Origin: Nonlabens sp. | GTDB lineage: Bacteria; Bacteroidota; Bacteroidia; Flavobacteriales; Flavobacteriaceae | NCBI GenBank assembly: GCA_020630715.1 | Contig: JAHDIQ010000010.1 | Span: 71,883-135,882, forward strand | Length of the DNA stretch: 64,000 nucleotides | Reading direction: 5' to 3' | Made by a program: the position numbers and the translations under genes | Part shown: positions 7,838 through 49,907 of the stretch, piece by piece | Layout of the letters: the number at the start of each line of letters is the position of its first letter | How positions within the stretch are numbered: the stretch's first letter is position 1 | Notes under the pieces: model-generated | Seen by the model: the letters and a program-made list of their open reading frames with translations, nothing else | Databases searched by the model: none | Told to the model about the DNA's origin: nothing

Positions 7838-8932
7838 TTGACCATTCCTTACTTACATTTGAAATCCTTGCAGGCTAGATTTAAAGATCAGGATGCGCAA
7901 TCATTACAAGCGATTCAGGAATCTGGACAGTTTATAGGTGGTGATTTTGTGACGACTTTTGAGAATTCTTTTGCCAGTTATTGTGGTGTTCATCATGCAG
8001 TAGGAACAGGAAACGGGCTGGACGCTTTAACCTTAATTCTACTGGCAGAAAAGCAACTGGGCAACTTAACAGAACATGCTAAAATACTTCTACCAGCGCA
8101 TACCTATATCGCAACGTTTTTAAGTGTTATTCACGCTGGTATGCAACCTATTCCTGTGGATGTTTCAGATCTTACGATTTCAGTTCCAGACCTAGAAAAT
8201 CATACAAATGGTATCGATGCTATAGTTGTCGTGGATATTTATGGAAAGCTGGTGGATGATGAGGTTTACGCTTTCGCGAAAGCGAAACAATTACCCATAT
8301 ATTGCGATACAGCACAATCTCACGGCGCAAGAAACTCTAGTGGAAAACGCTCTGGAAGTCTAGCACGAGCCAGTGCTTTTTCATTCTATCCTACAAAAAA
8401 TTTAGGAGCATTAGGCGATGGTGGCGCCGTAACTTCAGATGATTCTGAACTAGCAAGCATGGTGCGCAAACTGGCAAACTACGGCCGTGAAAGCAGATTT
8501 GTAAATAGCGTCATAGGAATGAACTCGCGTTTAGATCCATTACAAGCGTCGTTTTTATCCAGTAGACTACAACAATTAGATGCAGATTATCAATGTAGAT
8601 ACGACATCGCGAGAAGTTATGTAAATGGGATAAAAAATGAGTTAGTTACCGTTCCAGAACCATCGTTTTTTGAACACAACGCGATTCATGTATTTCCTGT
8701 ATTTGTAGAACATCGTGATAGATTTGTGACGTATATGAATCGTTGCGGTATAGGAACAAATTGTCATTATCCTGTCGCACCGCACTCGCAAGAAGCGTTG
8801 TCCTTTTTAAATCACCTATCGTTTTCTAATACAGAAAAATTCCATCGTACTGAGGTGAGTATTCCATGTCATCCATTACTATCTAGTGATGAGGTGCAGT
8901 ATGTTATCCATTCCATAAACAATTATGAATGA
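7838..8932 (+). CDS. DegT/DnrJ/EryC1/StrS-family PLP aminotransferase (WecE/RffA-like sugar 4-aminotransferase)
   Basis: 364 aa. FSFYPTKNLGALGDGGA (contains the PLP lysine), DTAQSHGA. TTG start in the track. Contains palindrome copy 8269..8284. Confidence 0.85.
   Translation: MTIPYLHLKSLQARFKDQDAQSLQAIQESGQFIGGDFVTTFENSFASYCGVHHAVGTGNGLDALTLILLAEKQLGNLTEHAKILLPAHTYIATFLSVIHAGMQPIPVDVSDLTISVPDLENHTNGIDAIVVVDIYGKLVDDEVYAFAKAKQLPIYCDTAQSHGARNSSGKRSGSLARASAFSFYPTKNLGALGDGGAVTSDDSELASMVRKLANYGRESRFVNSVIGMNSRLDPLQASFLSSRLQQLDADYQCRYDIARSYVNGIKNELVTVPEPSFFEHNAIHVFPVFVEHRDRFVTYMNRCGIGTNCHYPVAPHSQEALSFLNHLSFSNTEKFHRTEVSIPCHPLLSSDEVQYVIHSINNYE
8269..8284. repeat. Palindrome family copy 3 (16/16)
   Basis: Inside the DegT aminotransferase CDS. 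Read as Y-A-F-A-K-A-K. Confidence 0.95.
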
Positions 8933-10215
8933 AGCTGTTTGATCGATGGAATAACAACGTCATTTTAAAACTAGCTAGTTTTAATAGCATTCATATCGTT
9001 ATTAAATTAGTGTTAGGTGCCGTAATGTCTAAGGTTATTGCCATCTATGCTGGTACTGCCGGAATCGCGTTAATGGGGAATTTACAAAACGTTCTTCAAG
9101 GCACGCAAACCTTTGCTGTTTTAGGTCAACAACATGGGATTGTAACCTACACCTCGCAGTATCGAGATGATCATGGGAATTTGAAAATTCATTTATCCAC
9201 CGCATGGGTAATGGCACTGATCGCTGGAATTACGGTTGCGATTATAGTGTTTTTTACGGCTGGATGGATCTCACAATATTTATTTGATCAGGATTATAAT
9301 AATGTGATTAGACTGCTCGCTATATCATTACCATTTTTTATCATATACACCTTTATAAGTGGTCTTTTACAAGGATTTGAACGGTATAAAAAGTATGTGC
9401 TCTTACAGATTATAGTTTCTGTGATTGTGTTTTGTATCGCTACGTATTTATTAATTCAGTATGAGGTTTCTGGTGCTTTATATGGTATTGTAATAACACC
9501 TATTCTCCAGTCATTAATAGCTGTGGTGTTATTGAAAAACGCTTTGCCAGATGTGTCTTTACAAAACCTGATTAGCTTTAAATACGATCCTACAGTAGCT
9601 AGAAAGTTTTTAAAGTATAGTGCGATGGCATTAGTGAGTGCCTTACTATTACCAGCGGTAATGATTGTAGTAAGAACCTTTTTAATGGAGCAGTCTGGTG
9701 ATGATGATGCTGGTTGCTGGCAGGCGATGATGCGCATTTCTGGTTACTATATGATGTTTAGTACTACCTTAATTGCGATGTACGTATTGCCTAGTTTAAG
9801 CAGGGAATCTAGTTATAATAACTTTAGAAAAACCACATTCCAATTTTTAAAAACCATATTACCATTGATTTTAGTAGGAATGATTATGGTTTATCTATTT
9901 AGAGATTTCATTATATCATTTCTCTTTACAGCAGATTTTAAAGGAATGCATCCCTTATTTAAATGGCAATTACTAGGAGATTTTATAAAGGTGATCACTA
10001 CGGTGCTCGCCTTTGAATTTGTAGCGCGCAATGACATTAAAAGATACCTCATTGCAGAGTTGATTAGCATTGCAAGCTTCTACGCGTTAAGTCATTATTT
10101 AATCCCAGAAAATGGAGCGGTAGGAGCAGTGCAGGCTCACTTTATCACCTATATCATTTACTTAATAGTACTAGTAGTCTTACTACGTAAAGAATTGTTT
10201 AGTAAAACAGCTTAA
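8929..10215 (+). CDS. Wzx-type polysaccharide/O-antigen flippase (MOP superfamily)
   Basis: 428 aa with about 12 TM segments. ATGA start/stop overlap with the aminotransferase gene. Confidence 0.75.
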   Translation: MKLFDRWNNNVILKLASFNSIHIVIKLVLGAVMSKVIAIYAGTAGIALMGNLQNVLQGTQTFAVLGQQHGIVTYTSQYRDDHGNLKIHLSTAWVMALIAGITVAIIVFFTAGWISQYLFDQDYNNVIRLLAISLPFFIIYTFISGLLQGFERYKKYVLLQIIVSVIVFCIATYLLIQYEVSGALYGIVITPILQSLIAVVLLKNALPDVSLQNLISFKYDPTVARKFLKYSAMALVSALLLPAVMIVVRTFLMEQSGDDDAGCWQAMMRISGYYMMFSTTLIAMYVLPSLSRESSYNNFRKTTFQFLKTILPLILVGMIMVYLFRDFIISFLFTADFKGMHPLFKWQLLGDFIKVITTVLAFEFVARNDIKRYLIAELISIASFYALSHYLIPENGAVGAVQAHFITYIIYLIVLVVLLRKELFSKTA

Positions 10216-11096: not shown

Positions 11097-11112
11097 CGCT
11101 TTCGCGAAAGCG
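11097..11112. repeat. Palindrome family copy 4 (16/16)
   Basis: Intergenic, 24 nt upstream of the exonuclease ATG at 11136. Confidence 0.95.
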
Positions 11113-11982: not shown

Positions 11983-12016
11983 TTGATATATCATGTTGAG
12001 TTTTTAGTTACATTTG
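11983..12016 (+). promoter_or_regulatory. Candidate promoter of the regulator gene (TTG at 11983-11985, -7 box TACATTTG at 12009-12016)
   Basis: Exact TAnnTTTG match. The TTG lies 23 nt upstream, slightly wider than the usual spacing. Confidence 0.3.
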
Positions 12017-14824
12017 AGAAACTCAACGATCTTGAAAAACCTAAACTTTTTATTCATTCTTATAGGTTTCTTTTTTCATTGCCATGCGCAAGAGTTACCA
12101 CCTACACAGTATTTTAATCCATCAGTCTATGAGGCTGGTAATCAAAACTGGATGATCGCAGAATCTGATGATCATCAAATTTATATAGCTAATAATAAAG
12201 GATTGTTAGTCTACAATGGAGCTCAGTGGAATCTCTATAAAACTCCTAATGAAAGCATCATGCGATCTGTAAAAATTGATGGTGATCGTGTTTATACAGG
12301 ATGTTATATGGATTTTGGTTACTGGGAAGCAAATGCTACTGGTAGGTTGTCCTATACATCAATTCTGGAACAAACTGGGTTTAGTGTTGAGGAAGATGAA
12401 CAATTCTGGAACATATCTGTTCAGGAGGATTATGTGCTTTTCCAGTCGTTATCCCATATTTATCTGTATGATAAAGAGAAAAATACTATTTCTCCTATCG
12501 TTCAGGATGTGACTATTCATAAATTCTTTACCGTAGAAAGTTCTTTTTATTATCAGGTATTAGGTGAAGGTTTGTATCAAGTTTCAAACGGTAATTCCCA
12601 ATTACTTAGTAGTCAGTCAATTATTAAGGATAAGCCAGTAGTTCATATGTTTGAGCAAAATGGGATGATTTATGTCGTTACAGAGGATTCGGCAATTTAT
12701 GCTCTTAAAGATGATAATGTATCATTGACTAGTAAGTTACAGTTTGATAAACCGGTAACTCTATATAGTGCAGAAGCCTTAGATGATGGGTCTTTATTAT
12801 TAGGAACCATATCCAGTGGCGTCATATCTTCAAATTTAGACGGTAGTGTTAATTACAGCATTAATCAGAATAGTGGATTGGGCAATAATACCTGTCTTTC
12901 TGTTTTTCAGGACAGTAAGAATAATATTTGGTTAGGACTAGATAACGGTTTGAGTTGTGTGAATCAAGATTCATCGTATTTGTTCTATAGAGATCGAGAC
13001 GGTAGTTTAGGAACCGTTTACGCATCTGCAAAATTTGAAAACAAAGTCTTTATAGGAACAAACCAAGGGCTGTTTTCAAAAAATGTCAACGAGAAAGAGT
13101 TTAATTTTATAGAAGGAAGTGCTGGACAAGTATGGTCATTAGATGTGATTGATAATACATTATTTTGCAGTCATAACCTAGGTCTATTTGCACTAGTAAA
13201 TGATCGTTTAGAGTTAGTACATAATACAGGTTCATGGCAAGTTCAGTCTGTACCTGGTAAAATAAATAGTGTACTAGTAGGATCTTATAAAGGCCTTTAT
13301 TTAATAGAGAAAAGAAATAATAGGTGGCAGTTTGAAACTTATGTAGAAGGTTTTAATATCAGTTCAAAGGATGTGGTTATTGAAAGTGATCAAACGGTAT
13401 ATGTAAACCATGAATATAAAGGTGTATTTAAATTAATACTGAATGACTCTTTAAATAAAGTGGTTACGAGTTCTGTAGTTGCTGAATTGCATAAAGGAAT
13501 AGGAAGTGATATGGCCTTATATGACGATGTGTTGTTTTATGCAAAACGAGATACCGTTTTCACAAAAAGCCGTTCTTCTGCTACATTTAGTTATGACCCA
13601 TTACTGAGTGAGCTTTTTAAATCTTCAGAATATACCTCAGGAAGCCTTGAAGTTTCTGGTAATTATTTATGGTGTTTTAATACTAATTACATTCATAGAA
13701 TTGAGTTTGAGGATATCAACGGAGATTATAAGATTAAAAAAATTAAGTATCCTAAAGTAGTAAGAAAGGAAAATACAGGTTATGAGAATTTAACCATGAT
13801 GACTCCTAAAACCTACTTGATAGGATCGTCCTTTGGTTACTCACTATTTGACGACTCTAAGGGTAATTTTGAAGAAGATTTAAACGTTTTTATTTCTAGT
13901 GCTAGTCATATAAAAGAGAATGATTTAAAAACGCTATCCCTTACAGAACCCGTAACTATAGATTACGAGGGAAGTAATATTCAAATTTCATATGCTGTAA
14001 ATAATTATGACGCCACGCGTGTAGTAGAATATCAGCATCAATTATTGAAAAATGATAAAGTAGTTAGTGGCTGGAGCGATTTGACAACTAGCAATACTGT
14101 ATCCTTTGAAAGTTTGCGTTTTGGTGATTATGAATTTGAGGTGCGTTTTAAGAAAATAGATGAGTCACTAAGTGATCCGGCAAGCTATTCATTTACCATA
14201 GGAAGACCTTATTATCTTACTAATACTGCGATCGTTATTTATATTATTCTTACGATACTGCTAGTTGCATTATTGAATGGCTTTTACATCTGGTACTTTA
14301 AGCGACAAAAGAAAAGAGCCCTACAAAAACAGCAAAAAGAATTAGAGTTGCAAAACCTTACTAATGAAAAGAATATCATTGAACTGCGTAATGCAAAACT
14401 ACGCAGTGATATAGAACATAGAAACAGAGAACTTGCCGTTTCAACCATGGCAATGATTAGAAAGAATGAAACTTTAAATGAGTTGAAGAACGAGTTACAA
14501 AAACTCCCTAAAGACAATGCAACCTCTTCACTTAAGAAAATGCTGGATAAAAATTTAAACAGCAAGCAGGATTGGATCACTTTTGAGGAAGCATTTAATA
14601 ATGCAGACAAGGATTTCTTTAAAAAGATCAAGGAGAAACATCCGTCTCTTTCTTCTGGCGATCTCAGACTATGTGTTTATTTAAGATTGAACTTATCATC
14701 AAAAGAAATTGCACCGCTTCTTAATATTTCTCCTAGAAGTGTAGAGATAAAGCGATATCGTTTGCGTAAAAAACTAGGTTTAACGCGTAATGATAGCCTT
14801 ACCAGTTACATTGTTGAGATTTAA
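12014..14824 (+). CDS. One-component transmembrane regulator: periplasmic beta-propeller-type sensor repeats + Y_Y_Y region + TM helix + coiled coil + C-terminal LuxR-type HTH
   Basis: 936 aa. Signal peptide, long repeat-rich sensor, TM segment TAIVIYIILTILLVALLNGFYIWYF, C-terminal LSSGDLRLCVYLRLNLSSKEIAPLLNISPRSVEIKRYRLRKKLGL. No kinase or receiver motifs seen. The start is ambiguous: the TTG at 12014 overlaps the putative -7 box, and the TTG at 12032 would give MKNLNFLFIL... Confidence 0.8.
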   Translation: MRNSTILKNLNFLFILIGFFFHCHAQELPPTQYFNPSVYEAGNQNWMIAESDDHQIYIANNKGLLVYNGAQWNLYKTPNESIMRSVKIDGDRVYTGCYMDFGYWEANATGRLSYTSILEQTGFSVEEDEQFWNISVQEDYVLFQSLSHIYLYDKEKNTISPIVQDVTIHKFFTVESSFYYQVLGEGLYQVSNGNSQLLSSQSIIKDKPVVHMFEQNGMIYVVTEDSAIYALKDDNVSLTSKLQFDKPVTLYSAEALDDGSLLLGTISSGVISSNLDGSVNYSINQNSGLGNNTCLSVFQDSKNNIWLGLDNGLSCVNQDSSYLFYRDRDGSLGTVYASAKFENKVFIGTNQGLFSKNVNEKEFNFIEGSAGQVWSLDVIDNTLFCSHNLGLFALVNDRLELVHNTGSWQVQSVPGKINSVLVGSYKGLYLIEKRNNRWQFETYVEGFNISSKDVVIESDQTVYVNHEYKGVFKLILNDSLNKVVTSSVVAELHKGIGSDMALYDDVLFYAKRDTVFTKSRSSATFSYDPLLSELFKSSEYTSGSLEVSGNYLWCFNTNYIHRIEFEDINGDYKIKKIKYPKVVRKENTGYENLTMMTPKTYLIGSSFGYSLFDDSKGNFEEDLNVFISSASHIKENDLKTLSLTEPVTIDYEGSNIQISYAVNNYDATRVVEYQHQLLKNDKVVSGWSDLTTSNTVSFESLRFGDYEFEVRFKKIDESLSDPASYSFTIGRPYYLTNTAIVIYIILTILLVALLNGFYIWYFKRQKKRALQKQQKELELQNLTNEKNIIELRNAKLRSDIEHRNRELAVSTMAMIRKNETLNELKNELQKLPKDNATSSLKKMLDKNLNSKQDWITFEEAFNNADKDFFKKIKEKHPSLSSGDLRLCVYLRLNLSSKEIAPLLNISPRSVEIKRYRLRKKLGLTRNDSLTSYIVEI

Positions 14825-14944: not shown

Positions 14945-14960
14945 CGCTTTTGCGAAAGCG
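14945..14960. repeat. Palindrome family copy 5 (15/16: CGCTTTTGCGAAAGCG)
   Basis: Intergenic, 146 nt upstream of the 15106 ATG. Confidence 0.85.
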
Positions 14961-15105: not shown

Positions 15106-18100
15106 ATGAAGAAAATTCTTCTAACAGTTATTGTAACCTTGATTACATCGACGTTTGTCCTAGGACAATCGCAAAATGTTAAAGTGGTTCAAAATGCAAG
15201 TGGTCACACCTTAACCGTAGATGGTAAGCCGTTTATGATTAACGGTATGAACTGGGATTATATTCCGGTAGGTGCTAACTACTCTTATGATTTCTGGTCT
15301 AAATCAGATACATTCATTAAAGCTGCTTTAGATTCAGAAATGTCTCTTTTGCAGAATATGAACGTAAATGTTATCAGAGTTTATACGGGAATACAACCTA
15401 AATGGGTGGAGTATATTTATGAGAAATATGGTATTTATACGATGTTAAACCATTCTTTTGGTAGATATGGATTAACTCTAGATGGAGTATGGATACCTAA
15501 CACGGAATATTCAAATCCTGCTGCAAGAAAGTTTTTACTAGCTGAAGCTACAAAAATGGTAAACGATTTTAAGGATACACCAGGTCTTTTAATGTTTATG
15601 TTAGGTAATGAAAATAATTACGGACTTTCCTGGGGTGGTGCTGCTACAGAAGATATTCCTATTGAAACGGAAGGTACGGTCATCACTCGTGCCAGAGCGA
15701 TGTACAAAGTGATGAATGAGGCAACTCTTGCCATGAAAAAGATAGATAGTTCACATCCTATAGCCATATGTAATGGTGACTTGTTGTATTTAGATCTAGT
15801 AAAAGAGCATTGTCCTGATATTGATATTTATGCTACTAATATGTATCGTGGGGTATCTTTTGGTGATGCATTTCAACGCGTTGCAGATGAGTTAGAGAAA
15901 CCTATTATGTTTTCAGAATTTGGTTCAGATGCCTTTAATGCTTTAAGCATGAAAGAAGATCAAAAGATGCAATCTTACTATGTAGTAAATAACTGGAAAG
16001 AGATTTACGCAAACGCAGCTGGTCTAGGAAAAGCAAATAACTCTATTGGTGGTTTCACCTTCCAGTTTAGTGATGGATGGTGGAAAGTAGGACAAACGAA
16101 AGATTTAGATATTCATAATTCAGATGCGGTATGGACAAGTGGTGGATATACCTTAGATACTGAGAATGGTTCAAAAAACATGAATGAAGAGTATTTTGGA
16201 ATATGTGCAAAAGGAAAGTCAGACGCACGTGGTCTATATACTTTGTATCCTAGAGCAGCATATTATGCTCTAAAGGATGTTCACAGTTTAAATCCTTACG
16301 GTGCTGGAATTGATGCCGCATTTGTGGATAATTACTTTGATGGGATTAATCTCATGGAATATGTTTTACAAGCACGTGGTGATAAGGCAGCGGCGGGAAC
16401 TGGTGGTGATGGTGAAATGTTACGTATAAGTAATTTAAGCGCACGCTTTACAACCTTTAATACTGGCGGGACTCTTATAACGACTCCTGATAATCAAGAT
16501 CCTACAGCTAATATTACACCTAATCAATTAGGCTTTGATCATATGCAATCCTACTTTGTAGGAGTCGAGGGAAAACCTGCCGCAAATATGAGAGCAAAGG
16601 TGGATTTAAACATTACCGGAAATGTAGCTCAAAACCCTATCGACGAAATATTCTATGAAAATAGAGCAAGACCAGTAATAGTTGAAGGAGCAAATGGTGA
16701 AGATGTTACTCTAATTGATAATAACCGTTTACAAGTCTATCAAGCAGAATTTGAATGGAATGCAAAAGAGTTTGATCTAAGAGGTTTTTATAGAACCGGT
16801 CACTACCATTGGGGTTATGAAGGTGATTTCTTTAACCTTTATCCAGAAGCAAATTATGGTCCTAATCTGGACATCTATGGAGGAGAAATTTTAGGAGCTG
16901 AGATAGATGGAAAGGGTGTTTTCCAAGGTTTAAAAGCAGCCGTAGGTCCACAATTATGGTGGGGCGCAAATCCTACGATGTTATTTAAATATAGAAAACA
17001 AATAGGTAAATGGGATGTAGCCGGTATTTATCACCGTGATTTTGATCGTAATACAGAATTTGATCCTATTACTGGTGCTCGAGTTATTGATCCAGTGCAA
17101 GCTCGTAGTGGTATTATACCACCATGGGCTACAGAGCGTGCGACTCTTGCAATTCAGAGAGACTTCGGGAAATTTGGTATTATGGTTGGTGGAATTTGGG
17201 GTGGAAGTCCTTTAAATGGATTAGCTTATCAGGATTTTACTGGTGAATCAGGCAATTATACTGTTTTTGAGGATAGAATTAATTCTAATGATAATTGGGG
17301 TGGAAAGGTAAAATTAACTTATGAAGGAGGAAGATTTAACTGGTATGGTCAGGCATCTGCTATGGGATTAGTAGCAAACGGTGGTGCAGATCAAACTCAA
17401 ACTTTCACAGGATGGAGATTAAAAGATAGTGGTAGTGGTAACATGACTAATGTATTATCTGGTTTCACCTATTCAATGGGAGATCTTCAAATTGCTCCTA
17501 ATTTTATGTGGCAAAAACCACTAGTAGATGCGATTCCTAATGATATCGACGGACCAGGAAGATTACGTAATGTAATAGATGATCCATTTGCAGTGAGAAA
17601 TGGTAATCGTGAAATGACAGCAGGTGAGATACTTTTAACTTATGATCCTACACCAGGAACCTGGATGTATCAATGGGATAACGATAGAGCCGAGGATGCA
17701 AAATTTGCAATGAACCTAGGTTTTGTATACCGTCACTTGCCTACAAATATGGATGCACACATAGGTTTCCTAGCAGATCGTACATTCTTTGCATTTCCTA
17801 CCGCTGCACCAGCAGAGGATTTATGGGAGATTAATTCTAGAATGGTCTCAAAATTAAATCCTGAACTTGGTCTTATTGCTAATATGTATTACGGTAATGG
17901 TCAGGCAAATGGTGACTCTGATAGAACGATTACTAGATATGGTGGAGATGTGAGAGCGATTTACAAGAATTTTAAATTAGAAACTCACGCTAGGTTTAAC
18001 GATTGGGGTCCATTTGATTATCATAGAGATTTCAACCTTACGTTTCCTTATCAATTTATGCTAGATATTTCAACAAGTTTAGGAAAACCTGACTGGTTTA

Positions 18101-18288: not shown

Positions 18289-18291
18289 AAG

Positions 18292-19764: not shown

Positions 19765-19790
19765 AAATAAAGATTTAAAAACGTATTAGA

Positions 19791-20648: not shown

Positions 20649-20692
20649 CAACCACAATTGATGATTTCAATCATTTATTTAAAGAACTTATA

Positions 20693-21583: not shown

Positions 21584-21599
21584 CGCTTTCGCGAAAGCG
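21584..21599. repeat. Palindrome family copy 6 (16/16)
   Basis: Intergenic, 70 nt upstream of the 21669 ATG. Confidence 0.95.
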
Positions 21600-25139: not shown

Positions 25140-25151
25140 TCGGGTTGTAAT

Positions 25152-25177
25152 GATTACGCTTTCGCGAAAGCGTAATC
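25152..25177. repeat. Palindrome family copy 7 (perfect 26-bp palindrome GATTACGCTTTCGCGAAAGCGTAATC)
   Basis: It fills much of the 65-nt gap between the phosphorylase-like gene and the GH17 gene. Confidence 0.95.
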
Positions 25178-26473: not shown

Positions 26474-27969
26474 TGAAAAACTTGAATCCTTCTATTTATT
26501 TAATCATAGCTTCATTCCTTATGAGTTGCGAGAACAAATTACCAGAATTAGATACTACGATATATGAAACATCTGCCGCTGGTAACCAACTAACGGTAGT
26601 TTCAGATTTTGAACCTTTAGATTCTGTTACCGTAGTAAGCTTAAATGAAGAAAAAACATATCAAAAAATTACGGGTTTTGGCGGCGCATTTACAGAGTCT
26701 TCTGCCTATTTACTAAATCGATTAAGTAAAGAAAATCGCAATGAAATTTTAGAAGCCTATTTTTCTGAAGATGGAGCAAATTATTCTTTAACACGCACAC
26801 ACATGAATAGTTGTGATTTCTCATTATCACAATATTCTTATGCAGCTGTTCCAGATGATATGGAGTTGAGAAACTTTACGGTAGAAGAAGACCGTGAGGA
26901 TTTAATCCCTATGATTAAAGACGCTATGGCGATTTCAAAAGATGGTTTTAAACTATTTGCATCACCGTGGACAGCACCACCATGGATGAAAGATAATAAT
27001 GAATGGGTAGGCGGTAAATTATTACCAGAATATTACGACACATGGGCATTGTTCTTTTCAAAATACATCGAAGCTTACCGGGAAGAAGGAATTGAATTAT
27101 GGGGTTTTACTGTAGAGAATGAACCACACGGAAATGGGAACAACTGGGAAAGTATGCACTACACGCCAGAAGAGATGACCACTTTTGTGCAGCACCATCT
27201 AGGACCTCACTTAGAAGAAAAAGGTTACGGCGATAAAATCATTCTAGGATATGATCAGAATAGAGCAGGAATTAAAGAATGGGTAGATGTCATGTACGCC
27301 ACACCAGAATCTTCAAAATATTATGACGGTACCGCAATTCACTGGTATGAAAGCACCTATGAAATCTTTGCAGATGATCTACAATATGCACATGAAAAAG
27401 CACCAGATAAATATCTGATTGAAACAGAAGGTTGTGTGGATAGTGAAGTCCCAGCATGGAAAGATGATGCATGGTACTGGAAAAAAGAAGCTACAGATTG
27501 GGGCTGGGATTGGGCTCCAGAGGAACAAAAATATTTACATCCTAAATATGCGCCGGTAAATAGGTACGCACGTGATATCATAGGTTGCATGAATAATTGG
27601 GTAGACGGCTGGGTAGACTGGAATATGGTACTGGATAAACAAGGTGGACCTAACTGGTTTAAGAACTGGTGTGCTGCGCCAGTAATCGTAGATCCAGATA
27701 TTGATGAGGTGTATTACACACCATTATATTATGTGATGGCTCACTTTAGTAAGTTCATACGTCCTGATGCAACGGTTATAGATGTTCAATCTACAGATGA
27801 TGACCTACAAATTACGGCAGCCATAAATCCTGATGGTACTACCGCTGTTGTGGTTTTTAATGAAGGAATGGAAAAGAAGTCCTTTGAATTACGCTTTCGC
27901 GAAAGCGTAACTACCATCAACATCGATGCACAAGCGTTACAAACAATAATGATACCAACTAAAAAATAA
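26473..27969 (+). CDS. GH30 glycosidase (beta-1,6-glucanase / glucosylceramidase family) lipoprotein
   Basis: 498 aa. Lipobox FLMSC. GFGGAFTES, FTVENEPHG (acid/base), YLIETEGC (nucleophile). TAATG overlap with the upstream gene. Contains palindrome copy 27889..27910. Confidence 0.85.
   Translation: MKNLNPSIYLIIASFLMSCENKLPELDTTIYETSAAGNQLTVVSDFEPLDSVTVVSLNEEKTYQKITGFGGAFTESSAYLLNRLSKENRNEILEAYFSEDGANYSLTRTHMNSCDFSLSQYSYAAVPDDMELRNFTVEEDREDLIPMIKDAMAISKDGFKLFASPWTAPPWMKDNNEWVGGKLLPEYYDTWALFFSKYIEAYREEGIELWGFTVENEPHGNGNNWESMHYTPEEMTTFVQHHLGPHLEEKGYGDKIILGYDQNRAGIKEWVDVMYATPESSKYYDGTAIHWYESTYEIFADDLQYAHEKAPDKYLIETEGCVDSEVPAWKDDAWYWKKEATDWGWDWAPEEQKYLHPKYAPVNRYARDIIGCMNNWVDGWVDWNMVLDKQGGPNWFKNWCAAPVIVDPDIDEVYYTPLYYVMAHFSKFIRPDATVIDVQSTDDDLQITAAINPDGTTAVVVFNEGMEKKSFELRFRESVTTINIDAQALQTIMIPTKK
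27889..27910. repeat. Palindrome family copy 8 (perfect 22-bp palindrome TTACGCTTTCGCGAAAGCGTAA)
   Basis: Inside the GH30 CDS. Read as L-R-F-R-E-S-V. Confidence 0.95.
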
Positions 27970-35736: not shown

Positions 35737-36203
35737 GTGTTTGTGTACATTGCTTCTGCAAAGGTCTTAAAATCTTCTATGTGTTGCCTATTCTGTCCTG
35801 TAAATAATTGAGGTTGTGCTTTTCCTATCAGTCGCATCATACCAGTAAATTTAAAACTGCTGTTACTTTCCCAGTGAGTGACTTTTTGAGTAGTGTTGTT
35901 TGTGGTGATTTCGCTTTCGCGAAAGCGGTTACTTTGCTTATTCAATACGCCACTTGTACGGTAGGTCGCTTCCCAAAGATGTGGTAAATCTAGAGCAGTG
36001 ATTTCCTCTGTCATTGTAATGACCGTTCCAGCGGCTTTGATTTTCATCAGGCGTTTACTTCCTACCTCACCTATCTGTTGTGACTGGTTTTTAAAACTCA
36101 CAAGACCGCGTTGCCAGTGCTTAAAATAATCTTGATTTTTAAAAAGCTCCATCACGTAATCAATAGGGCAGTGAATGGTGATTTTTTGATTGCTGGATAT
36201 CAT
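35721..36203 (-). CDS. SRPBCC-superfamily (START/Bet v1-like) protein
   Basis: 160 aa. The length and pattern (IHCPIDYVMELFKNQDYFKHWQRGL...) are typical of SRPBCC ligand-binding proteins. Contains palindrome copy 35912..35927. Confidence 0.55.
   Translation of the reverse strand: MISSNQKITIHCPIDYVMELFKNQDYFKHWQRGLVSFKNQSQQIGEVGSKRLMKIKAAGTVITMTEEITALDLPHLWEATYRTSGVLNKQSNRFRESEITTNNTTQKVTHWESNSSFKFTGMMRLIGKAQPQLFTGQNRQHIEDFKTFAEAMYTNTWNVN
35912..35927. repeat. Palindrome family copy 9 (16/16)
   Basis: Inside CDS 35721..36203. Read on the minus strand as N-R-F-R-E-S-E. Confidence 0.95.
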
Positions 36204-38303: not shown

Positions 38304-39141
38304 ATATATCTATACGGTTTTCATACTATGCTTCATAGTAAGTTGTGATTTTTTTAAATCACAACAGCCAGTAGATGCTGTTGTTTCTCTAGATGATCAT
38401 TATCTTACCAGTGAAGATATCGAGCAGTGGTTGCCTGATAACTATACCGCTGCAGATAGTACTCGTATTGTAAATGCACAAATAAATCAATGGGCCATTA
38501 ATCATTTATTAATGAAAAATGCGACTTTGAATATTTCAAAAGATGAACAAGAGCAATTAGATCAATTAGTAGCAAATTATAAACAGGAATTATACACACA
38601 GGTTTATAAAGAAAACCTAACAAAACAAAACCTAGATACCATCATACAGCATTCTGCGGTGCAAGATTATTATGCAACGCAATTAGAGAACTTAAAGCTT
38701 AATGAAGACCTGGTACAATTAAGTTTTGTTGAATTGGATCCATTATATTCAGAAATTGGGACGATTAAAAAGCTTTTGAAAAAACATGATTCTACGGCAG
38801 TTAGTCATCTAGATAGTTTGTCCTTAGGCTTTAAATCTTATTTTGTAAATGACAGTATCTGGGTAAAAAAGACTAGAGTTTATGATAAAATACCCTACAT
38901 AAACGTTGTAAATGAAAAGTCCTATATAAAAGATGGCACCTTTCATGAATTACAAGATAGCCTTAGCTTATATTTGGTGCGCTTTCACAAGGTCTTACGC
39001 CGTGGAGAAAAAGCACCTTTACAGTACGTAAAACCTACTATAAAACAAATATTATTGAATAAGCGCAAGCTTAATTATATAAAGAATTTAGAAAAAGAAT
39101 TACTAAATGATGCAATACAAAGTAATAAACTTAAGTCTTAG
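38284..39141 (+). CDS. Hypothetical lipoprotein within the PPIase cluster
   Basis: 285 aa. TTG start. Lipobox FIVSC. 20-nt overlap with the upstream gene, so the start is uncertain. Confidence 0.5.
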   Translation: MQRNALKYIYTVFILCFIVSCDFFKSQQPVDAVVSLDDHYLTSEDIEQWLPDNYTAADSTRIVNAQINQWAINHLLMKNATLNISKDEQEQLDQLVANYKQELYTQVYKENLTKQNLDTIIQHSAVQDYYATQLENLKLNEDLVQLSFVELDPLYSEIGTIKKLLKKHDSTAVSHLDSLSLGFKSYFVNDSIWVKKTRVYDKIPYINVVNEKSYIKDGTFHELQDSLSLYLVRFHKVLRRGEKAPLQYVKPTIKQILLNKRKLNYIKNLEKELLNDAIQSNKLKS

Positions 39142-40567
39142 TAGCTTGTTAATGTTGATGTGTTTCGCTTTCGCGAAAGCGATACCAGCACAAACAGATT
39201 CCATCGTAGCGGCAGATGAGCAAGTAAAGAATGAAGTGCTAGCAAGCATGCGTAAAATGGACAGCGTAAAACCTAAACAAGAACGTATATTAATCGATGG
39301 AGTAAGTGGAGTAGTAGGTGATTATTTAATCCTTAAATCTGATATTAAAAAAACTCTAGACGATCTTAAAAGAACACAATTCGGTGCAAATATTTCTAAT
39401 TGTGACTTAATAGAAAGTATGTTGCAAGAAAAAATGTATGCGCATCACGCCATACAGGATAGTATCGTAGTAGGTGATGCAGAGATTAATGGCCAGGTTG
39501 AACAGCGATTAGCCTATATAAGACAAGAGTTAAGAAGTAATGATGATAAAGTACTGTTAGAATTTTACAAGAAAAATAGTCTAGAAGAAATACGCGCAGA
39601 ACTATTCAAATTATCGCGCGATAAAATTCTATCAGACCGCATGAAAGAACGGCTTACAGAAAGTGTTGAAATCACACCAGAAGAAGTAAGAGAATTCTTT
39701 TACAGTTTACCAGAAGATAAAAGACCACTTTTTAATACAGAAGTGGAAGTTTCTCAAATCATCATTAAACCAGAACCTACAGAAGAAGCAGAACAAGAAG
39801 CGATAGACCAGCTTAATGAATATCGCAACGATGTGCTAGAAAATGGAGCAAGCTTTGCAGCAAAAGCAGCACTTTTTTCTGATGATTCTGTGACAGAGCA
39901 AAATGGTGGGATCATCTCACTAGAACGTAATGGACCATTTGTTAAGGAGTTTAAAGACGCAGCATTTTCGCTACAAGAAGGTGAAATTAGTAAACCATTT
40001 AGAACAGATTTTGGCTGGCATATACTTTTAGTAGATAAAGTACGAGGACAGGTTAGAGACGTACGTCATATTCTTCTTATTCCATACATTAGTGTAGCTC
40101 AAGTGCGCAAAGCAAAACAGGAACTTACAGATATTAGAGATAAAATTCTTTATAAGGAACTAACCTTTGAAGAAGCGGCAAAAAAGTTTAGCGAGGAGAA
40201 AGAAACGGCAAAAAATGGTGGTAAATTAATTAATCCGCGTACAGGTGAAGCTCGTTTTGAACTTAATAAACTACCAGAAGAATATACTGCGCAGGTACAA
40301 TTTTTACAAAAAGGTGACATTAGTGGTGTACTGGATCAAAGAGATCAGAGCGGTAATCAATACTTTAAAATCATCTTTGTAAAGAATAAAATTGAAGATC
40401 ATGAAGCAGATTATGCTTTAGATTTTTTAAAAATTAAAGAGTTAGCGCTCACTAATAAAAAGATTGAAGTAATTGATCAATGGCAAAAAGAAAAGCTAAA
40501 AGATACTTACATTAAACTAGGAGAAGATGTTCAAGGATGTGAATCTTTATTAAATTGGGCAAACTAA
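39107..40567 (+). CDS. SurA-like periplasmic chaperone / peptidyl-prolyl isomerase (two parvulin domains)
   Basis: 486 aa. Signal peptide ...LMLMCFAFAKA. SQIIIKP...FGWHILLV and VRHILLIP parvulin motifs. Palindrome copy 39166..39181 lies in the signal-peptide codons. Confidence 0.85.
   Translation: MMQYKVINLSLSSLLMLMCFAFAKAIPAQTDSIVAADEQVKNEVLASMRKMDSVKPKQERILIDGVSGVVGDYLILKSDIKKTLDDLKRTQFGANISNCDLIESMLQEKMYAHHAIQDSIVVGDAEINGQVEQRLAYIRQELRSNDDKVLLEFYKKNSLEEIRAELFKLSRDKILSDRMKERLTESVEITPEEVREFFYSLPEDKRPLFNTEVEVSQIIIKPEPTEEAEQEAIDQLNEYRNDVLENGASFAAKAALFSDDSVTEQNGGIISLERNGPFVKEFKDAAFSLQEGEISKPFRTDFGWHILLVDKVRGQVRDVRHILLIPYISVAQVRKAKQELTDIRDKILYKELTFEEAAKKFSEEKETAKNGGKLINPRTGEARFELNKLPEEYTAQVQFLQKGDISGVLDQRDQSGNQYFKIIFVKNKIEDHEADYALDFLKIKELALTNKKIEVIDQWQKEKLKDTYIKLGEDVQGCESLLNWAN
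39166..39181. repeat. Palindrome family copy 10 (16/16)
   Basis: Inside the signal-peptide codons of 39107..40567 (C-F-A-F-A-K-A). Confidence 0.95.
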
Positions 40568-41622: not shown

Positions 41623-42711
41623 TTAAGGACAGTTTACAGTAGAAAGAGTCATTTCAATTACTGCATAATCATTAGTAGCGCCATCTGTGATTCCTACAAA
41701 AATTGTTTCTACTGGTAGCGTATTGTTATATACAACGCTGGCGTCCATAGGGTTCATTTGGTTTAACGCATCGTTTTCTGTCTCGTAATAAACTATGGTA
41801 TCTATATTCTCATCTAGTCGCATGATCTCACTAATACATGCATCGTATACATTTAAAATATAATCTGCGATTCCAGGAGTTAAATCATTTTCACAACCCT
41901 CAAAATCTAGATTAAAACAATCATTAGTATCCTCAGGAGTGCAGTATCTGTTAATAATTAATTCCTCACCAGTCTCAGTGGATAAGGTCATCGTTTCTGG
42001 TGACCAAAATTCTACACGCCAGTTTTTATTAAAACGCTGGCCGTAAATAGAAGTATTGTCTAGCAGGTAAATATTGATAAACAATTGATTATCTATAAAT
42101 AATGAATTCCAGGAACCTTCATCACTTACATCATCGTATTCAAAATAAGTTACACCACTGCCATCAAATTGTGCACCTAGAAAATCATTAGTATCATTAA
42201 AAGAATATCCTACCTTCCATACACAATTTATGCTATTATTTAACAAGGCATCACAGCTACTGATAATTTCTAATTGTTCCTCAATACATTTTTCAATACT
42301 TTCAAAAAGTTCATCATTGTTTGTGATAGAAACAATCGTACCATCATCTAGAGTAGTTGCTATAGGGTAACTAATAGATATATTTTCCGTAGGATCTAGA
42401 TTAGATAAAAAATCAACGAAAGATTGATTTCCAGTGATATTGTCTAGGCTAATTACGGCATCATTTTGATCTACTGTAAATATTCCTATTGGGTAAATAA
42501 ATTGAATACATGTTACATCATTAGGGCTATCGCCATCATTTTCATCTGCCATAGCTGTAACATAGTCATAAAGTTCAGACGATTGTTCGATTACCTCCAG
42601 GCGTTTTTGTTGATCGTCTAGATCCTCATATTCACATGAGGTCAAAATTAGAATAGTTAACAAACTCAATACTTTTAAAATATTTTTCATCACAGTTATT
42701 TTTGGGTTCAT
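41623..42711 (-). CDS. Acidic hypothetical lipoprotein
   Basis: 362 aa. Lipobox ILTSC (the start may be the internal MKNILKVL...). Asp/Glu/Asn-rich. No motif recognised. Confidence 0.5.
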   Translation of the reverse strand: MNPKITVMKNILKVLSLLTILILTSCEYEDLDDQQKRLEVIEQSSELYDYVTAMADENDGDSPNDVTCIQFIYPIGIFTVDQNDAVISLDNITGNQSFVDFLSNLDPTENISISYPIATTLDDGTIVSITNNDELFESIEKCIEEQLEIISSCDALLNNSINCVWKVGYSFNDTNDFLGAQFDGSGVTYFEYDDVSDEGSWNSLFIDNQLFINIYLLDNTSIYGQRFNKNWRVEFWSPETMTLSTETGEELIINRYCTPEDTNDCFNLDFEGCENDLTPGIADYILNVYDACISEIMRLDENIDTIVYYETENDALNQMNPMDASVVYNNTLPVETIFVGITDGATNDYAVIEMTLSTVNCP

Positions 42712-42764: not shown

Positions 42765-42788
42765 ATTTCGCTTTCGCGAAAGCGAAAT
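42765..42788. repeat. Palindrome family copy 11 (perfect 24-bp palindrome ATTTCGCTTTCGCGAAAGCGAAAT)
   Basis: In the divergent intergenic region between 41623..42711 (-) and the aconitase gene (+). Confidence 0.95.
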
Positions 42789-43027: not shown

Positions 43028-45301
43028 ATGGCATTTGATATAGAAATGATTAAAAAAGTGTACGAGCAAATTCCTGCACGTGTGAACAAAGCACGTGAGT
43101 TAACCGGAAAACCGCTAACACTTTCAGAAAAAATATTATACTCTCATTTATGGGACGGATCACCATCTACCGTTTTTACTCGTGGTAAAGATTACGTAGA
43201 TTTTGCACCAGATCGTGTAGCATGTCAGGATGCAACAGCACAAATGGCTTTATTGCAATTCATGCAAGCTGGAAAAGATAAAGTAGCAGTACCTACAACG
43301 GTACATTGTGATCACTTAATTCAAGCAAAAATAGGAGCAGATACAGATTTACAAAATGCGTTAAATACCAGTAACGAGGTATTCAACTTCTTAGAATCAG
43401 TATCAAATAAATATGGAATCGGATTCTGGAAACCAGGTGCTGGAATTATCCACCAGGTAGTTTTAGAAAACTATGCATTCCCAGGTGGAATGATGATAGG
43501 AACAGATTCTCATACCGTAAATGCTGGTGGACTAGGAATGGTTGCCATAGGTGTAGGTGGAGCAGATGCTGTAGATGTTATGGCAGGAATGGCCTGGGAA
43601 TTAAAATTTCCTAAGTTAATAGGTGTAAGATTAACTGGTAAGTTATCAGGATGGACAGCACCTAAGGATGTGATTCTTAAAGTAGCAGAGATTCTTACCG
43701 TAAAAGGTGGAACAGGCGCGATTGTAGAATACTTTGGTCCTGGAGCATTAAACCTTTCTTGTACTGGTAAAGGAACCATTTGTAACATGGGAGCAGAGAT
43801 AGGAGCGACGACTTCTACATTTGGGTACGATGATTCTATGGAACGTTATTTACGTGCTACAGATCGTGCAGACATTGCAGATGAGGCAAATAAAATTAAA
43901 GAATACCTAACAGGTGATGCAGAAGTTTATGCAAATCCAGAACAGTATTTTGATCAAGTAATTGACATTAATTTAGATGAGTTAATGCCTCATTTAAATG
44001 GTCCGTTTACTCCAGATCTTGCTACGGTAGTAGGAACTATGAAGCCTAAAGCTGAGAAGAACGACTGGCCATTAAAAGTAGAATGGGGACTTATAGGATC
44101 TTGTACTAACTCTTCTTATGAAGATTTATCGCGTGCTAGTTCTGTAGCGCAACAAGCTTTAGACAAAGGTTTAAAAACAAAAGCAGAATTTGGTATCAAT
44201 CCAGGATCAGAGCAAGTACGCTTTACCGCAGAGCGTGATGGAATCCTAAAGGTATTTGAAGATTTAGATGCAAAGATATTTACAAACGCTTGTGGTCCAT
44301 GTATAGGACAATGGGCGCGATATGAAGATCCTAAAAACGCACCTAAAAACTCTATCGTTCACTCATTCAATAGAAACTTTGCAAAACGTGCAGATGGGAA
44401 TCCTAACACACATGCCTTTGTAGCATCTCCAGAAATTACAGCTGCTATTGCTATTGCTGGTCGCTTAGATTTCAACCCGATTACTGATAAGTTAATCAAT
44501 GAGGATGGAGAAGAAGTAATGTTAGATGAACCTACAGGATGGGAATTACCACCTAAAGGTTTTGAGGTAGAAGATGATGGTTACCTAGCACCTATGGCAG
44601 ACGGTAGCGGTGTTCAAGTAAGCGTTGCCACAGATTCAGAACGTCTACAGTTACTAGAGCCATTTACTCCTATAGGAAATAGTATTACTGGAGCTAAATT
44701 GTTGATCAAAGCATTTGGTAAATGTACTACAGATCATATTTCTATGGCTGGTCCATGGTTACGTTACCGTGGTCACCTAGATAACATTGCAAATAATACC
44801 TTAATAGGTGCTGTAAACGCATTTGGTAAGAAAACAAATTTCGTTAAGAATCAACTGGATGGAGAATACGGTGGTGTGCCAGATACGGCTAGAGCTTATA
44901 AAGCAGCAGGCGTACCATCTATCGTAATAGGAGATCATAACTATGGAGAAGGTTCTTCTCGTGAACATGCAGCAATGCAACCACGTCACCTAGGAGTAGT
45001 TGCTGTGATTGTAAAATCATTTGCACGTATTCATGAAACAAACCTTAAGAAACAAGGTATGCTAGGATTAACCTTTGCAAATGAAGCAGACTATGATTTA
45101 ATTCAGGAAGATGATACGTTCAACTTCTTAGACCTAGATCAATTTGCACCAGACACGCCACTTACTATTGAAGTAGTGCATGCAGACGGTTCTAAAGATG
45201 TATTCAAGGCTAATCATACGTATAACGCAGCTCAAATCGAATGGTTTGAAAAAGGTAGTGCCTTAAACAAGATTAAAGAAGAAAGTGCTAAAAACGCATA
45301 A
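43028..45301 (+). CDS. Aconitate hydratase (750-aa mitochondrial-like type)
   Basis: 757 aa. [36 protein letters not shown] (Fe-S cysteines). C-terminal swivel domain GSSREHAA. Confidence 0.95.
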
Positions 45302-47849: not shown

Positions 47850-47924
47850 GGTGGAAGATCGGTTTCGAACCGACGACCTCCTGAACCACAATCAGGCGCT
47901 CTAACCAGCTGAGCTACAACCACC
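47850..47924 (-). tRNA. tRNA-His (anticodon GTG), with an encoded G-1
   Basis: Hand-folded cloverleaf. D arm GCTC-AGCTGGTTA-GAGC. Anticodon arm CCTGA-TTGTGGT-TCAGG. T arm GTCGG-TTCGAAA-CCGAT. G-1 lies opposite C73. No CCA is encoded. The acceptor stem as read has two T-T mismatches (5:68 and 6:67). Confidence 0.8.
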
Positions 47925-48030: not shown

Positions 48031-48747
48031 TTATTTCAAATCAAAAATACTTTCTACCGCAGGATAACGCTCTGCTATAAATCCTTCTCCATATTCCGTG
48101 CCTATATAACGTCCCATATTTGCAGCACGATACTTTATAGAATCAAAGAAATTTTTATTACTAATAGGTGTTTGAGGCTCATCAGAATCTGGATCAAAAA
48201 ACTGTGAGCTATAAGCTTTTACAGATTCTATTTTTAGGTCCATGTAACCTGTAATATCCACGATGAAATCTGGTTCCATATCCTGCCATTGTATATAGTG
48301 ATAGACATGCTTAGGTCTACAGGCTTCTTGTGGTTTACCGTCTAGGGTTGTTACTATCTTAGGTAAACCGGATAGAAAACATGCTTTACTGGTAAGTTTG
48401 CTGCCTTTTCCATGATCTGGATGGCGATCATACACTGCATTGCACAATACAATTTCTGGTCTGTATTTACGGATACGCTTAATGATTTCTAGCTGGTGCG
48501 CTTCATCATCTATAAAAAAACCATCCTTAAAAGATAGGTTTTCACGAACTGATAAATTTAAGATTGCAGCCGCCTTTGCAGCTTCTTGATCTCGAATTGT
48601 AGCACTGCCTCGTGTTCCTAATTCACCTCTGGTAAGATCTAAAACGCCTGTTTTTTTTCCTGCTGCTGCTTCTTTGGCCAGTACGCCACTACAACTTAAT
48701 TCTACATCATCAGGATGTGCGCCTATGGCTAGTATGTCTAATTTCAT
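48031..48747 (-). CDS. bshB1: Bacillithiol biosynthesis deacetylase BshB1 (LmbE/PIG-L family)
   Basis: 238 aa. ILAIGAHPDDVELSCSG, HPDHGK. Typical BshB1 length. Confidence 0.8.
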   Translation of the reverse strand: MKLDILAIGAHPDDVELSCSGVLAKEAAAGKKTGVLDLTRGELGTRGSATIRDQEAAKAAAILNLSVRENLSFKDGFFIDDEAHQLEIIKRIRKYRPEIVLCNAVYDRHPDHGKGSKLTSKACFLSGLPKIVTTLDGKPQEACRPKHVYHYIQWQDMEPDFIVDITGYMDLKIESVKAYSSQFFDPDSDEPQTPISNKNFFDSIKYRAANMGRYIGTEYGEGFIAERYPAVESIFDLK

Positions 48748-49907
48748 GAATCTAAAGTATTACTTTTTTTAATGGCGCGTTTGATATCTGCCTTTAAAAC
48801 ACTCACTTCTTCTATCCCTACTGAAAATCGTAACAGTCTGTCAGAGATTCCTTGATCTGTTCGTTGATCTGCGGTTAATAAACTGTGTGACGTTACTGCT
48901 GGTGCTAGAATGGTGCTTTCTACACCAGCAAGACTTAAGGCTACTTTTATGGTTTTTAAGTGACTTACAAATTGCTCATGATTGATACTCTTATCCAGTT
49001 CAAAGGATAACATTCCACCATAGTCATTCATCTGTTTTTTGGCCAGTTTGTGATCTGGATGTGATTTTAAACCTGGATAATTCACTTGTGTTACCTGTGG
49101 ATGTTTCTCAAGGAATTTAGCTAGTTTTTTAGCGTTTTTAGTTTGTCGCTGTACGCGCAATCCTAGTGTTTTTATACTGCGTTCCAGCATCCATGCAGTT
49201 TGGTCACTTATGCTTCCGCCGTAGTTTTTTGCTGTTTTCCAGATGTGATGGATGTAATCCTTACTAGCGCAAACTACACCAGCAGTGATGTCACTGTGAC
49301 CACCTAAATATTTTGTAGCACTATGAATGACTAGGTCTATGCCATGATCTGCAGGATTTTGATTGATAGGTGACGCAAATGTGTTGTCTATTGCGGTGAT
49401 GATGGATTTCGCTTTCGCGAAAGCGGAAACACCACCAATATCAGTAATTTTAAGCAACGGATTACTAGGAGTTTCTATGTAGATCATTTTGGTGTGATCC
49501 GTACAAGATTGAGCAAGCGTTTCTTCATTAATGTCTGAAAGAAAAGTGTAATTGATTCCGGTTTTTTCAAACTCGGCAGTTACAAAATGGCTGGTGCCGC
49601 CATAAATAGATTCTTGTAAAATGATATGATCGCCCGTTTTAAGGTAGGTCATAAAAACCGCGCTGATTGCGGCCATACCACTGGCAAAAATTAATCCAGC
49701 TTCCGTATGTTCTAGAGCAGCCATTTTTTGTGCTAGCGCTACCTGATTAGGCGTATTCATATATCGCGGATACAGGTTAGTTCCATCACTACGATAGTCA
49801 TAAGCTGTTGAGGTATAGATAGGTGCCGTCGCGCCACCGTAAATAGGATCTTTTAATTCGCCAGCATGAACACACGTGGTATGAATGGATCTTTTCTTTG
49901 AACTCAT
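48744..49907 (-). CDS. PLP-dependent trans-sulfuration enzyme (cystathionine gamma-synthase / beta-lyase / methionine gamma-lyase family)
   Basis: 387 aa. IHSATKYLGGHSD (PLP lysine), DNTFASP. 4-nt overlap with bshB1. Contains palindrome copy 49410..49425. Confidence 0.85.
   Translation of the reverse strand: MSSKKRSIHTTCVHAGELKDPIYGGATAPIYTSTAYDYRSDGTNLYPRYMNTPNQVALAQKMAALEHTEAGLIFASGMAAISAVFMTYLKTGDHIILQESIYGGTSHFVTAEFEKTGINYTFLSDINEETLAQSCTDHTKMIYIETPSNPLLKITDIGGVSAFAKAKSIITAIDNTFASPINQNPADHGIDLVIHSATKYLGGHSDITAGVVCASKDYIHHIWKTAKNYGGSISDQTAWMLERSIKTLGLRVQRQTKNAKKLAKFLEKHPQVTQVNYPGLKSHPDHKLAKKQMNDYGGMLSFELDKSINHEQFVSHLKTIKVALSLAGVESTILAPAVTSHSLLTADQRTDQGISDRLLRFSVGIEEVSVLKADIKRAIKKSNTLDS
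49410..49425. repeat. Palindrome family copy 12 (16/16)
   Basis: Inside the trans-sulfuration enzyme CDS. Read on the minus strand as S-A-F-A-K-A-K. Confidence 0.95.

Follow-up and report, generated by a model that had tools for sequence, protein, structure and literature searches.

Within a 64,000-nucleotide stretch of the genome of Nonlabens sp. (assembly GCA_020630715.1, contig JAHDIQ010000010.1, forward-strand positions 71,883 to 135,882; hereafter the window), we examined a highly repeated 16-bp DNA word, CGCTTTCGCGAAAGCG, which is its own reverse complement. The word occurs there in 12 exact and two one-mismatch copies, ~1 copy per 4.5 kb of a sequence of ~35% GC, and 100 dinucleotide-preserving shuffles yielded no copy within two mismatches, compared with the 14 of the window. 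Read in frame, a copy encodes AFAKA, RFRES, or LSRK(R). As a preliminary description of this DNA had proposed, seven copies lie in frame within genes, all seven hosts being confirmed by Pfam, with AFAKA at 2668, 8269, 39166, 49410, and 61218 and RFRES at 27892 and 35912. The copies, by window position, are these.

2668..2683: 15 of 16 bases (TGCTTTCGCGAAAGCG, beginning TGC, 14-mer core intact), in a PPDK_N/PEP-utilizers gene at 904-3420 (minus strand), AFAKA frame
4468..4483: exact, divergent intergenic region between a UbiA-like gene at 3417-4265 (minus strand) and BipA/TypA at 4609-6417 (plus strand)
8269..8284: exact, in a DegT aminotransferase gene at 7838-8932 (plus strand), AFAKA frame, codons 144-148, eight residues before DTAQ
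11097..11112: exact, ~25 nt upstream of the probable ATG of an RNase_T exonuclease gene, RFRES frame if a TTG start at 11013 is accepted
14945..14960: 15 of 16 bases (CGCTTTTGCGAAAGCG, containing TTTTGCG), intergenic, between tandem plus-strand genes at 12014-14824 and 15106-18288
21584..21599: exact, intergenic, upstream of a gene for a 1156-aa protein at 21669-25139
25157..25172: exact, intergenic, between the 1156-aa gene (stop 18 nt upstream) and a GH17-like gene that starts 33 nt downstream, at 25205
27892..27907: exact, in a GH30 gene at 26473-27969 (plus strand), RFRES frame, codons 474-478, C-terminal beta-sandwich
35912..35927: exact, in an SRPBCC-like gene at 35721-36203 (minus strand, weak Pfam match), RFRES frame, followed by a variable loop
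39166..39181: exact, in a SurA-like peptidyl-prolyl isomerase (rotamase) gene at 39107-40567 (plus strand), AFAKA frame, at the end of the signal peptide (…LMLMCFAFAKAIPAQ; …CFAFAKAIPAQ)
42769..42784: exact, divergent intergenic region between genes at 41623-42711 (minus strand) and 43028-45301 (plus strand)
49410..49425: exact, in a Cys/Met pyridoxal phosphate (PLP) enzyme gene (Cys_Met_Meta_PP) at 48744-49907 (minus strand), AFAKA frame, codons 161-165, before DNTF
55594..55609: exact, intergenic, 5 nt past the stop of a gene at 55615-56016 (minus strand) and 89 nt upstream of the start of a gene at 54936-55505 (minus strand)
61218..61233: exact, in a DUF6588 protein gene at 61183-62172 (plus strand), AFAKA frame, signal-peptide cleavage region (MKLKITLFCCCLAFAKAELS; …CCCLAFAKAELS)

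A few details of the preliminary description change with this list. The GH30 copy is where a copy had been reported but starts at 27892 rather than 27889, the copy at 2668 is present with 15 of 16 bases matching, and the "OMP-like" protein at 61218 is DUF6588 by Pfam. At 11097, the copy probably lies between divergent genes, since it precedes the first ATG by 13 codons and comes before the RNase_T domain.

The genes around the copies are housekeeping genes and a beta-glucan utilization cluster, with no evident link to the word. The cluster, of laminarin type (window 15106-31224), is syntenic in Nonlabens species and comprises GH2-like and GH16 genes, a PKD-domain protein, the Pfam-less 1156-aa protein, GH17-like genes, GH30, and an MFS-GH17 fusion. 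In the fusion (27974-30313; 779 aa), an MFS sugar transporter carries a C-terminal GH17 domain; the same arrangement is found in the retrieved loci L121, L122, and L125, while in L120, L123, and L124 the transporter (472-518 aa) is separate from GH17. A TTG-started open reading frame (ORF) for a 730-aa rotamase (36111-38303, plus strand) overlaps the start of the SRPBCC-like gene by ~90 nt, and its true start is probably further downstream. No methyltransferase was found among the window ORFs scanned.

One genome per GTDB species was also scanned. The matches listed include at least 119 8-kb stretches, and Dokdonia, Nonlabens, and allied Flavobacteriaceae account for nearly all of them, with single matches elsewhere; among these matches, the word is abundant in Dokdonia, Nonlabens, and close relatives and sporadic in other taxa. 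The 160 exact copies analyzed come from 109 listed flavobacterial loci together with the window's 12. Copies with zero, one, two, and three mismatches number 160, 41, 14, and 11, so that exact copies far outnumber internal one-off variants, and in 30 of the 41 one-offs the change is at the outermost base. Because the one-offs concentrate there, we take the 14-mer GCTTTCGCGAAAGC to be the hard core. Within long ORFs, 51 copies were observed against 5e-5 expected from codon usage.

The word is preferentially preceded by TTW and followed by WAA. Outside this lies a compositional halo, with ~15 nt depleted of C on the 5' side and ~15 nt depleted of G on the 3' side, common to intergenic copies and to genic copies of every frame. 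In the window, the flanks of about 18 nt each side (for example, 8239-8268 and 8285-8310) are T-rich and C-poor on the 5' side and A-rich and G-poor on the 3' side. Such a composition might be a halo used in recognition or the footprint of strand-specific C-to-T mutation. A longer element or extended hairpin was also considered and rejected, as complementarity between the left and right flanks of a copy does not exceed, beyond position -1, that between flanks taken from different copies. Since the flanks show only this compositional signature, the unit is best described as ~22 bp plus a halo and not as a longer hairpin or repeat. The word itself can fold, and the DNA hairpin predicted at copy 25157 has a free energy of -11.3 kcal/mol (z, -5.6). 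No Rfam family matches the word; the only gathering matches in the window are a tRNA gene at 47850-47923 (minus strand) and an L19-Flavobacteria ribosomal protein leader (RF03130) at 58973-59000 (minus strand).

Evidence that the word is maintained as DNA comes from both coding and noncoding copies. In long ORFs of the window, AFAKA (five of five) and RFRES (three of three) are always spelled in the codons of the motif or of a one-off variant, and the same holds for 72 of 72 AFAKA peptides in the listed loci. TTC, GCG, and CGC are minor codons, yet they are the ones used in the motif. Across six orthologous genic pairs, third codon positions are identical at 23 of 24 sites within the motif, compared with 278 of 621 (45%) in the flanks (binomial P ~1e-7). 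Some of these pairs are affected by the way loci were sampled, but the window/L115 and L106/L091 pairs are not; in the Nonlabens locus L115, orthologous to window 49410, 15 of 16 bases are kept while the flanks have 72% identity.

The cleanest test is provided by loci fetched independently, through GH30 homologues. Exact copies occupy the positions of window copies 21584, 25157, and 27892 in a Nonlabens metagenome-assembled genome (L121), in N. marinus (L122), and in N. tegetincola (L125), and the copy at the 35912 position is present also in L122, L125, and L120. In the two intergenic alignments (21584 and 25157), only the 16-mer is conserved, with flanks that are unalignable or barely alignable. 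Outgroup loci with equally similar GH30 genes (L123, 10 kb; L124, 21.5 kb) have no site within four mismatches. The word is thus kept as a DNA element and not through selection on the encoded peptides. This supports the view, advanced in the preliminary description, that a force acting independently of protein function creates or preserves the word, given conserved synonymous sites, exact syntenic intergenic copies, and the spelling of every AFAKA and RFRES peptide in motif codons.

How genic copies arose can be read from alignments to homologues that lack the motif. In the DegT aminotransferase, YAFAKAK stands opposite WELAKKY (7n63) with no gap at the motif; a one-residue gap in the query falls about four residues before it. 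In the Cys/Met PLP enzyme, SAFAKAK matches STLAKEK (PDB 7d7o) without a gap, and among 120 orthologues there are no gaps across 34 columns, with [SA]AFAKA in ~57 Nonlabens-clade sequences and A[EK][LI]AK[EK]H (such as AELAKEH) at the same column in the Gramella, Gillisia, and Winogradskyella group. The PEP-utilizing enzyme pairs DFAFAKAKQ with IIQLAKLGRK (5fbs), again with no gap. For GH30, where the PDB alignment ended before the site, comparison was made with orthologues: ELRFRESV, a copy conserved within the Nonlabens-like clade, is aligned without a gap to KLQLAEKE, KLSLNGKL, and YLRLGDKK of Polaribacter, Winogradskyella, and others. An Aquimarina-labeled pair (L069 and L045) likewise places AFAKA opposite LLAKA, gapless, and signal-peptide ends hold six or seven AFAKA copies. 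As the alignments are gapless at the motif, the word appears to have replaced peptides already similar to those it encodes (xLAKx helices, beta-turns, and the AxA ends of signal peptides).

Not all sites are as simple. In the SRPBCC-like protein, the family motif N[RY]F[ER]E is matched by NRFRES, after which comes a seven-residue insertion relative to outgroups, encoded by G-free flank. Taking this as a sign of element insertion is weakened by the L121 orthologue (L121:19152-19553), which has the long loop without the palindrome, with a four-residue gap exactly at RESE. N. tegetincola GH30 (L125:11400-11430) has five extra residues (EGVRF) immediately before RFRES, the only indel at this site among 120 orthologues, and the orthologous pairs L039/L116 and L052/L112 differ by indels next to the site. 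In-frame indels thus accompany some copies, as the sites that bear them sit in variable loops. The earlier claim that the word was substituted rather than inserted therefore stands at the DegT, Cys/Met, PEP-utilizing, and GH30 sites and needs qualifying where in-frame indels adjoin the copy. From these alignments, the proposal that genic copies arose mainly by point substitution at tolerant or already close positions seems largely right.

Intergenic copies may differ in this respect. The gap that carries copy 25157, between the 1156-aa gene and the GH17-like gene (window 25139-25205), spans 59-123 nt in genomes with the motif and 14 nt in a motif-free outgroup (L124:8684-8698), and some intergenic copies may have arrived with extra DNA.

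The reading frames of genic copies are strongly biased. Of the 160 exact copies, 96 are in long ORFs, 62 as AFAKA, 23 as RFRES, and 11 as LSRK(R), far from uniform usage (chi-square P = 2e-10). Seven of eight LSRK host ORFs tested have Pfam domains in that frame. The frame bias is therefore real, but the statement in the preliminary description that only two frames are used is a small-sample effect: LSRK is unused in the window, where seven sites are not significant alone, and appears in 11 of 96 genic sites elsewhere. Pseudoreplication is minor because only about six orthologous pairs occur among the sites. Rarity of LSRK can be explained qualitatively, as this frame needs TCG, CGA, and CGN codons, of which TCG and CGA are rare. 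As a sole cause of frame use, codon frequency fails: the expectation for RFRES, AFAKA, and LSRK is 0.585, 0.405, and 0.0095, predicting RFRES above AFAKA, opposite to what is observed. Since codon usage fails to explain it, the AFAKA excess must reflect tolerance of the peptide.

Copies are also spaced more evenly than chance would place them. Neighboring copies among the 14 in the window are 1.8 to 8.0 kb apart (coefficient of variation of the gaps, 0.42; P = 0.0007 versus random placement), and in 61 independent multicopy loci, only three gaps are under 1 kb, versus 20 expected (P < 0.0002). About 59% of exact copies are inside ORFs; noncoding DNA, ~10% of the total, holds ~41% of 14-mer copies, which makes the word ~6-fold denser intergenically. 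Intergenic copies show no preference for tandem, divergent, or convergent regions relative to background, although about half of the noncoding copies fall within 20 nt of an upstream stop codon. In L121, where the intragenic SRPBCC copy is missing, an exact copy (L121:19072-19087) lies 65 nt past the gene stop, which hints at local turnover that keeps a copy in the neighborhood.

Among viral sequences, the word occurs in IMG/VR in only 42 stretches (~30 contigs), among which a prophage-like 37-kb myovirus contig (L147, L164, and L167; IMGVR_UViG_3300040781_000495) has at least six exact copies. This contig encodes portal, terminase, head protease, sheath, and baseplate proteins, and the portal and terminase genes themselves contain copies. 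No copy within three mismatches is present in the lytic Nonlabens (Persicivirga) phage P12024S (L168, JQ823122; 35.7 kb), where ~8 would be expected at host density.

Given the abundance and clade restriction of the word, the substitution at genic sites, the conservation at synonymous and intergenic positions, and the even spacing, we favor, with somewhat better than even confidence, the interpretation that it is a palindrome spaced at ~4.5 kb, maintained as DNA, and read symmetrically in a process that operates per unit of chromosome length, with genic copies gained mostly by substitution. Selection or a homogenizing drive would keep the word in place. A homodimeric DNA-binding protein may read it as a symmetric site, or it may be read as a hairpin, in a process such as nucleoid organization, recombination or repair, or self-DNA recognition; the reader protein, any methylation of the word, and its cellular role are what we infer from these patterns. 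Genic copies would have been gained by substitution in xLAKx helices of PLP and ATP-grasp enzymes, at AxA signal-peptidase sites, and in beta-turns and loops, and the order AFAKA > RFRES > LSRK would reflect tolerance of each encoded peptide and its codons.

Several points weigh against this interpretation. Copies might also keep their positions because decayed ones are restored by a repair system. Several sites have in-frame indels next to them, which point substitution alone would not explain. Codon frequencies do not quantitatively predict the frame proportions. The loci were chosen for holding an exact copy, a choice that raises the counts of exact copies and inflates some statistics on orthologous pairs, and spacing was tested on one 64-kb window and on 8-kb blocks only.

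Among the alternatives, a DNA uptake signal deserves attention: competent cells would favor palindrome-bearing DNA, and uptake bias combined with recombination would drive the word into tolerant sites. We consider this unlikely, if far from negligible. In being hyperabundant, clade specific, and evenly spaced, in its substitution at tolerant residues, and in its frame bias, the word matches the uptake signal sequence (USS) of Pasteurellaceae and the DNA uptake sequence (DUS) of Neisseriaceae, and the ~59% of exact copies in ORFs compares with 65%, 49%, and 34.5% in three USS/DUS species (PMC2817400). Competence that prefers own DNA exists in Flavobacteriales, as Riemerella columbina, from the only known competent genus of the order, is naturally competent and favors its own DNA, with no USS defined (PMC7965970). 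The copy-free lytic Nonlabens phage also fits an uptake signal, whereas the prophage-like contig, with at least six copies in 37 kb, does not. Known USS and DUS are asymmetric while this word is a perfect palindrome, and at 1 per 4.5 kb it is 4-5 times less dense than they are. We know of no report of competence in Nonlabens or Dokdonia. Flavobacterium johnsoniae was not transformable (PMC7965970). An idea that we hold only tentatively and think improbable is that the palindrome is a self-DNA tag, recognized by a dimeric receptor in natural transformation; if so, abundant marine Flavobacteriaceae would have the first uptake signal sequence from beyond Proteobacteria, and it would be the first of palindromic form. 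More broadly, and as tentatively, the word could be an evenly spaced self-recognition array of a recombination or defense system. Comparably doubtful is methylation-linked biased repair, the model of Elhai for the Highly Iterated Palindrome 1 (HIP1) of cyanobacteria, in which a methyltransferase would act on an internal sequence such as TCGCGA or CGCG, and a repair activity like very short patch (VSP) repair would turn near-matches into the canonical word and restore decayed copies, the word itself being functionless. Positional persistence is expected if decay is mended, exact copies are far above internal one-offs, and the concentration of one-offs at the first or last base (30 of 41) is the same as that reported by Elhai for HIP1 (PMC4390886). 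However, biased repair predicts neither the over-regular spacing nor the apparent local turnover that keeps a copy nearby, a specificity of 14-16 bp is far beyond any known VSP context, and Xu et al. argue that HIP1 reflects selection rather than repair (PMC5861425).

Other explanations fare worse. A miniature mobile element, akin to repetitive extragenic palindromic (REP) sequences with their REP-associated tyrosine transposases (RAYT), to miniature inverted-repeat transposable elements (MITE), or to Rickettsia palindromic elements (RPE), would make the genic copies in-frame survivors of insertion. The ~6-fold intergenic density, the wider gap after the 1156-aa gene in motif genomes, the in-frame indels adjacent to some sites, and the ability of the word to form a hairpin are in keeping with such an origin, but the gapless alignments at four well-conserved genic sites and across 120 orthologues make it very improbable, as do the lack of copy-specific similarity or complementarity beyond position -1, the absence of terminal repeats and target duplications, and the fixation of copies at the same positions across species; REPs, moreover, are extragenic, and RPE inserts are far longer than 16 bp. 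A function in RNA, where a stem-loop would terminate transcription or stabilize mRNA ends, draws on the stable hairpin and on the proximity of about half of the noncoding copies to an upstream stop. Here too the odds are slim. A T-run follows only one of five copies in the 4-24 kb region (11097), the 3' consensus being WAA and then A/C-rich sequence, so that the copies are not canonical intrinsic terminators, which pair a hairpin with a T-run downstream of genes; genes contain ~59% of copies, others occupy divergent promoter regions, and no Rfam family matches. Selection on AFAKA and RFRES as protein motifs, with the DNA word a by-product, we judge next to impossible and regard as refuted. AFA-KA does suit the AxA sites of signal peptidase, but ~41% of copies are noncoding, all three frames are used, synonymous positions are invariant with no synonymous spellings of the peptides, and the host proteins are mutually unrelated.

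Full-text literature searches returned nothing relevant on the 16-mer or 14-mer, on palindromes of Dokdonia or Nonlabens, or on highly iterated palindromes in flavobacteria, and the word is apparently undescribed so far. Its effects reach the proteome, where it inflates AFAKA, RFRES, and LSRK and shapes the ends of signal peptides, and a possible use of it is as a clade marker, in binning or in assigning prophages to hosts.

Comparison with known repeats places the word more precisely. REP and BIME elements with RAYT transposases, and RPEs, are likewise short palindromic repeats in hundreds of copies, with RPEs also found in frame within genes. REPs are extragenic and imperfect, with a 5' GTAG, and RPEs are true insertions that add residues, whereas here the motif residues align one-to-one with homologues and copies share nothing beyond ~22 bp. 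The length change and the similarity beyond the core that insertion of a REP, MITE, or RPE would bring are not seen at the sites compared, apart from a few adjacent indels. The site parS, TGTTTCACGTGAAACA, and the Noc-binding site (NBS) are 16-bp palindromes read by dimeric ParB-family proteins, present in a few to ~70 copies per genome, parS being origin-proximal. They resemble the word as 16-bp perfect palindromes with TTTC...GAAA arms. The arms, however, are separated by 4 bp in parS and NBS and by 2 bp here, which is a different half-site register, and the word is found at ~1 copy per 4.5 kb in every locus examined, amounting to several hundred per genome if the window density holds genome-wide.

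Resemblance to USS and DUS is closer. These words are also clade specific, hyperabundant, and evenly spaced; their genic copies lie at tolerant or poorly conserved residues with protein length unchanged; and their frames are biased, inflating the encoded peptides in the proteome (PMC2817400). The preliminary description had likened the word to uptake signal sequences, and frame bias, tolerant positions, and even spacing uphold that likeness (PMC2817400), but USS and DUS are asymmetric 9-12-mers read directionally, and the density here is lower. Because the word is instead a perfect palindrome, HIP1 is at least as close.

What HIP1 does has resisted explanation for decades, and its known occurrence is essentially limited to a single phylum. 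Its sequence in cyanobacteria is GCGATCGC, and like the word described here, it is a GC-rich perfect palindrome, hyperabundant genome-wide, found in coding DNA in all frames and in noncoding DNA, conserved at orthologous positions beyond what codons require, and prone to one-off variants at the outermost bases, with a nonrandom chromosomal distribution and no known function (PMC5861425, PMC4390886). The word is not HIP1 proper, differing in sequence, length, and phylum: HIP1 has 8 bp and the word 16 bp with a 14-bp hard core, and HIP1 belongs to Cyanobacteria and the word to Bacteroidota of 35% GC. HIP1 can exceed one copy per gene, compared with ~1 per 4.5 kb here, and a periodicity of 10-90 kb has been reported for it, in contrast to the short-range repulsion between copies of this word, which is also flanked on either side by ~15 nt of biased composition. 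The general features of the class, over-representation in a clade, conservation in coding and noncoding DNA beyond codons, and one-offs at the end bases, are nonetheless all present. A second, independent HIP1-like system, found in Nonlabens and Dokdonia, which are unrelated to cyanobacteria and have cultured members, and based on a longer word that is far easier to track, would help address which protein reads such words, whether selection or repair maintains them, and why they are evenly spaced. By analogy with these systems, we infer that the word belongs in the class of cyanobacterial HIP1 and is functionally close to uptake sequences.

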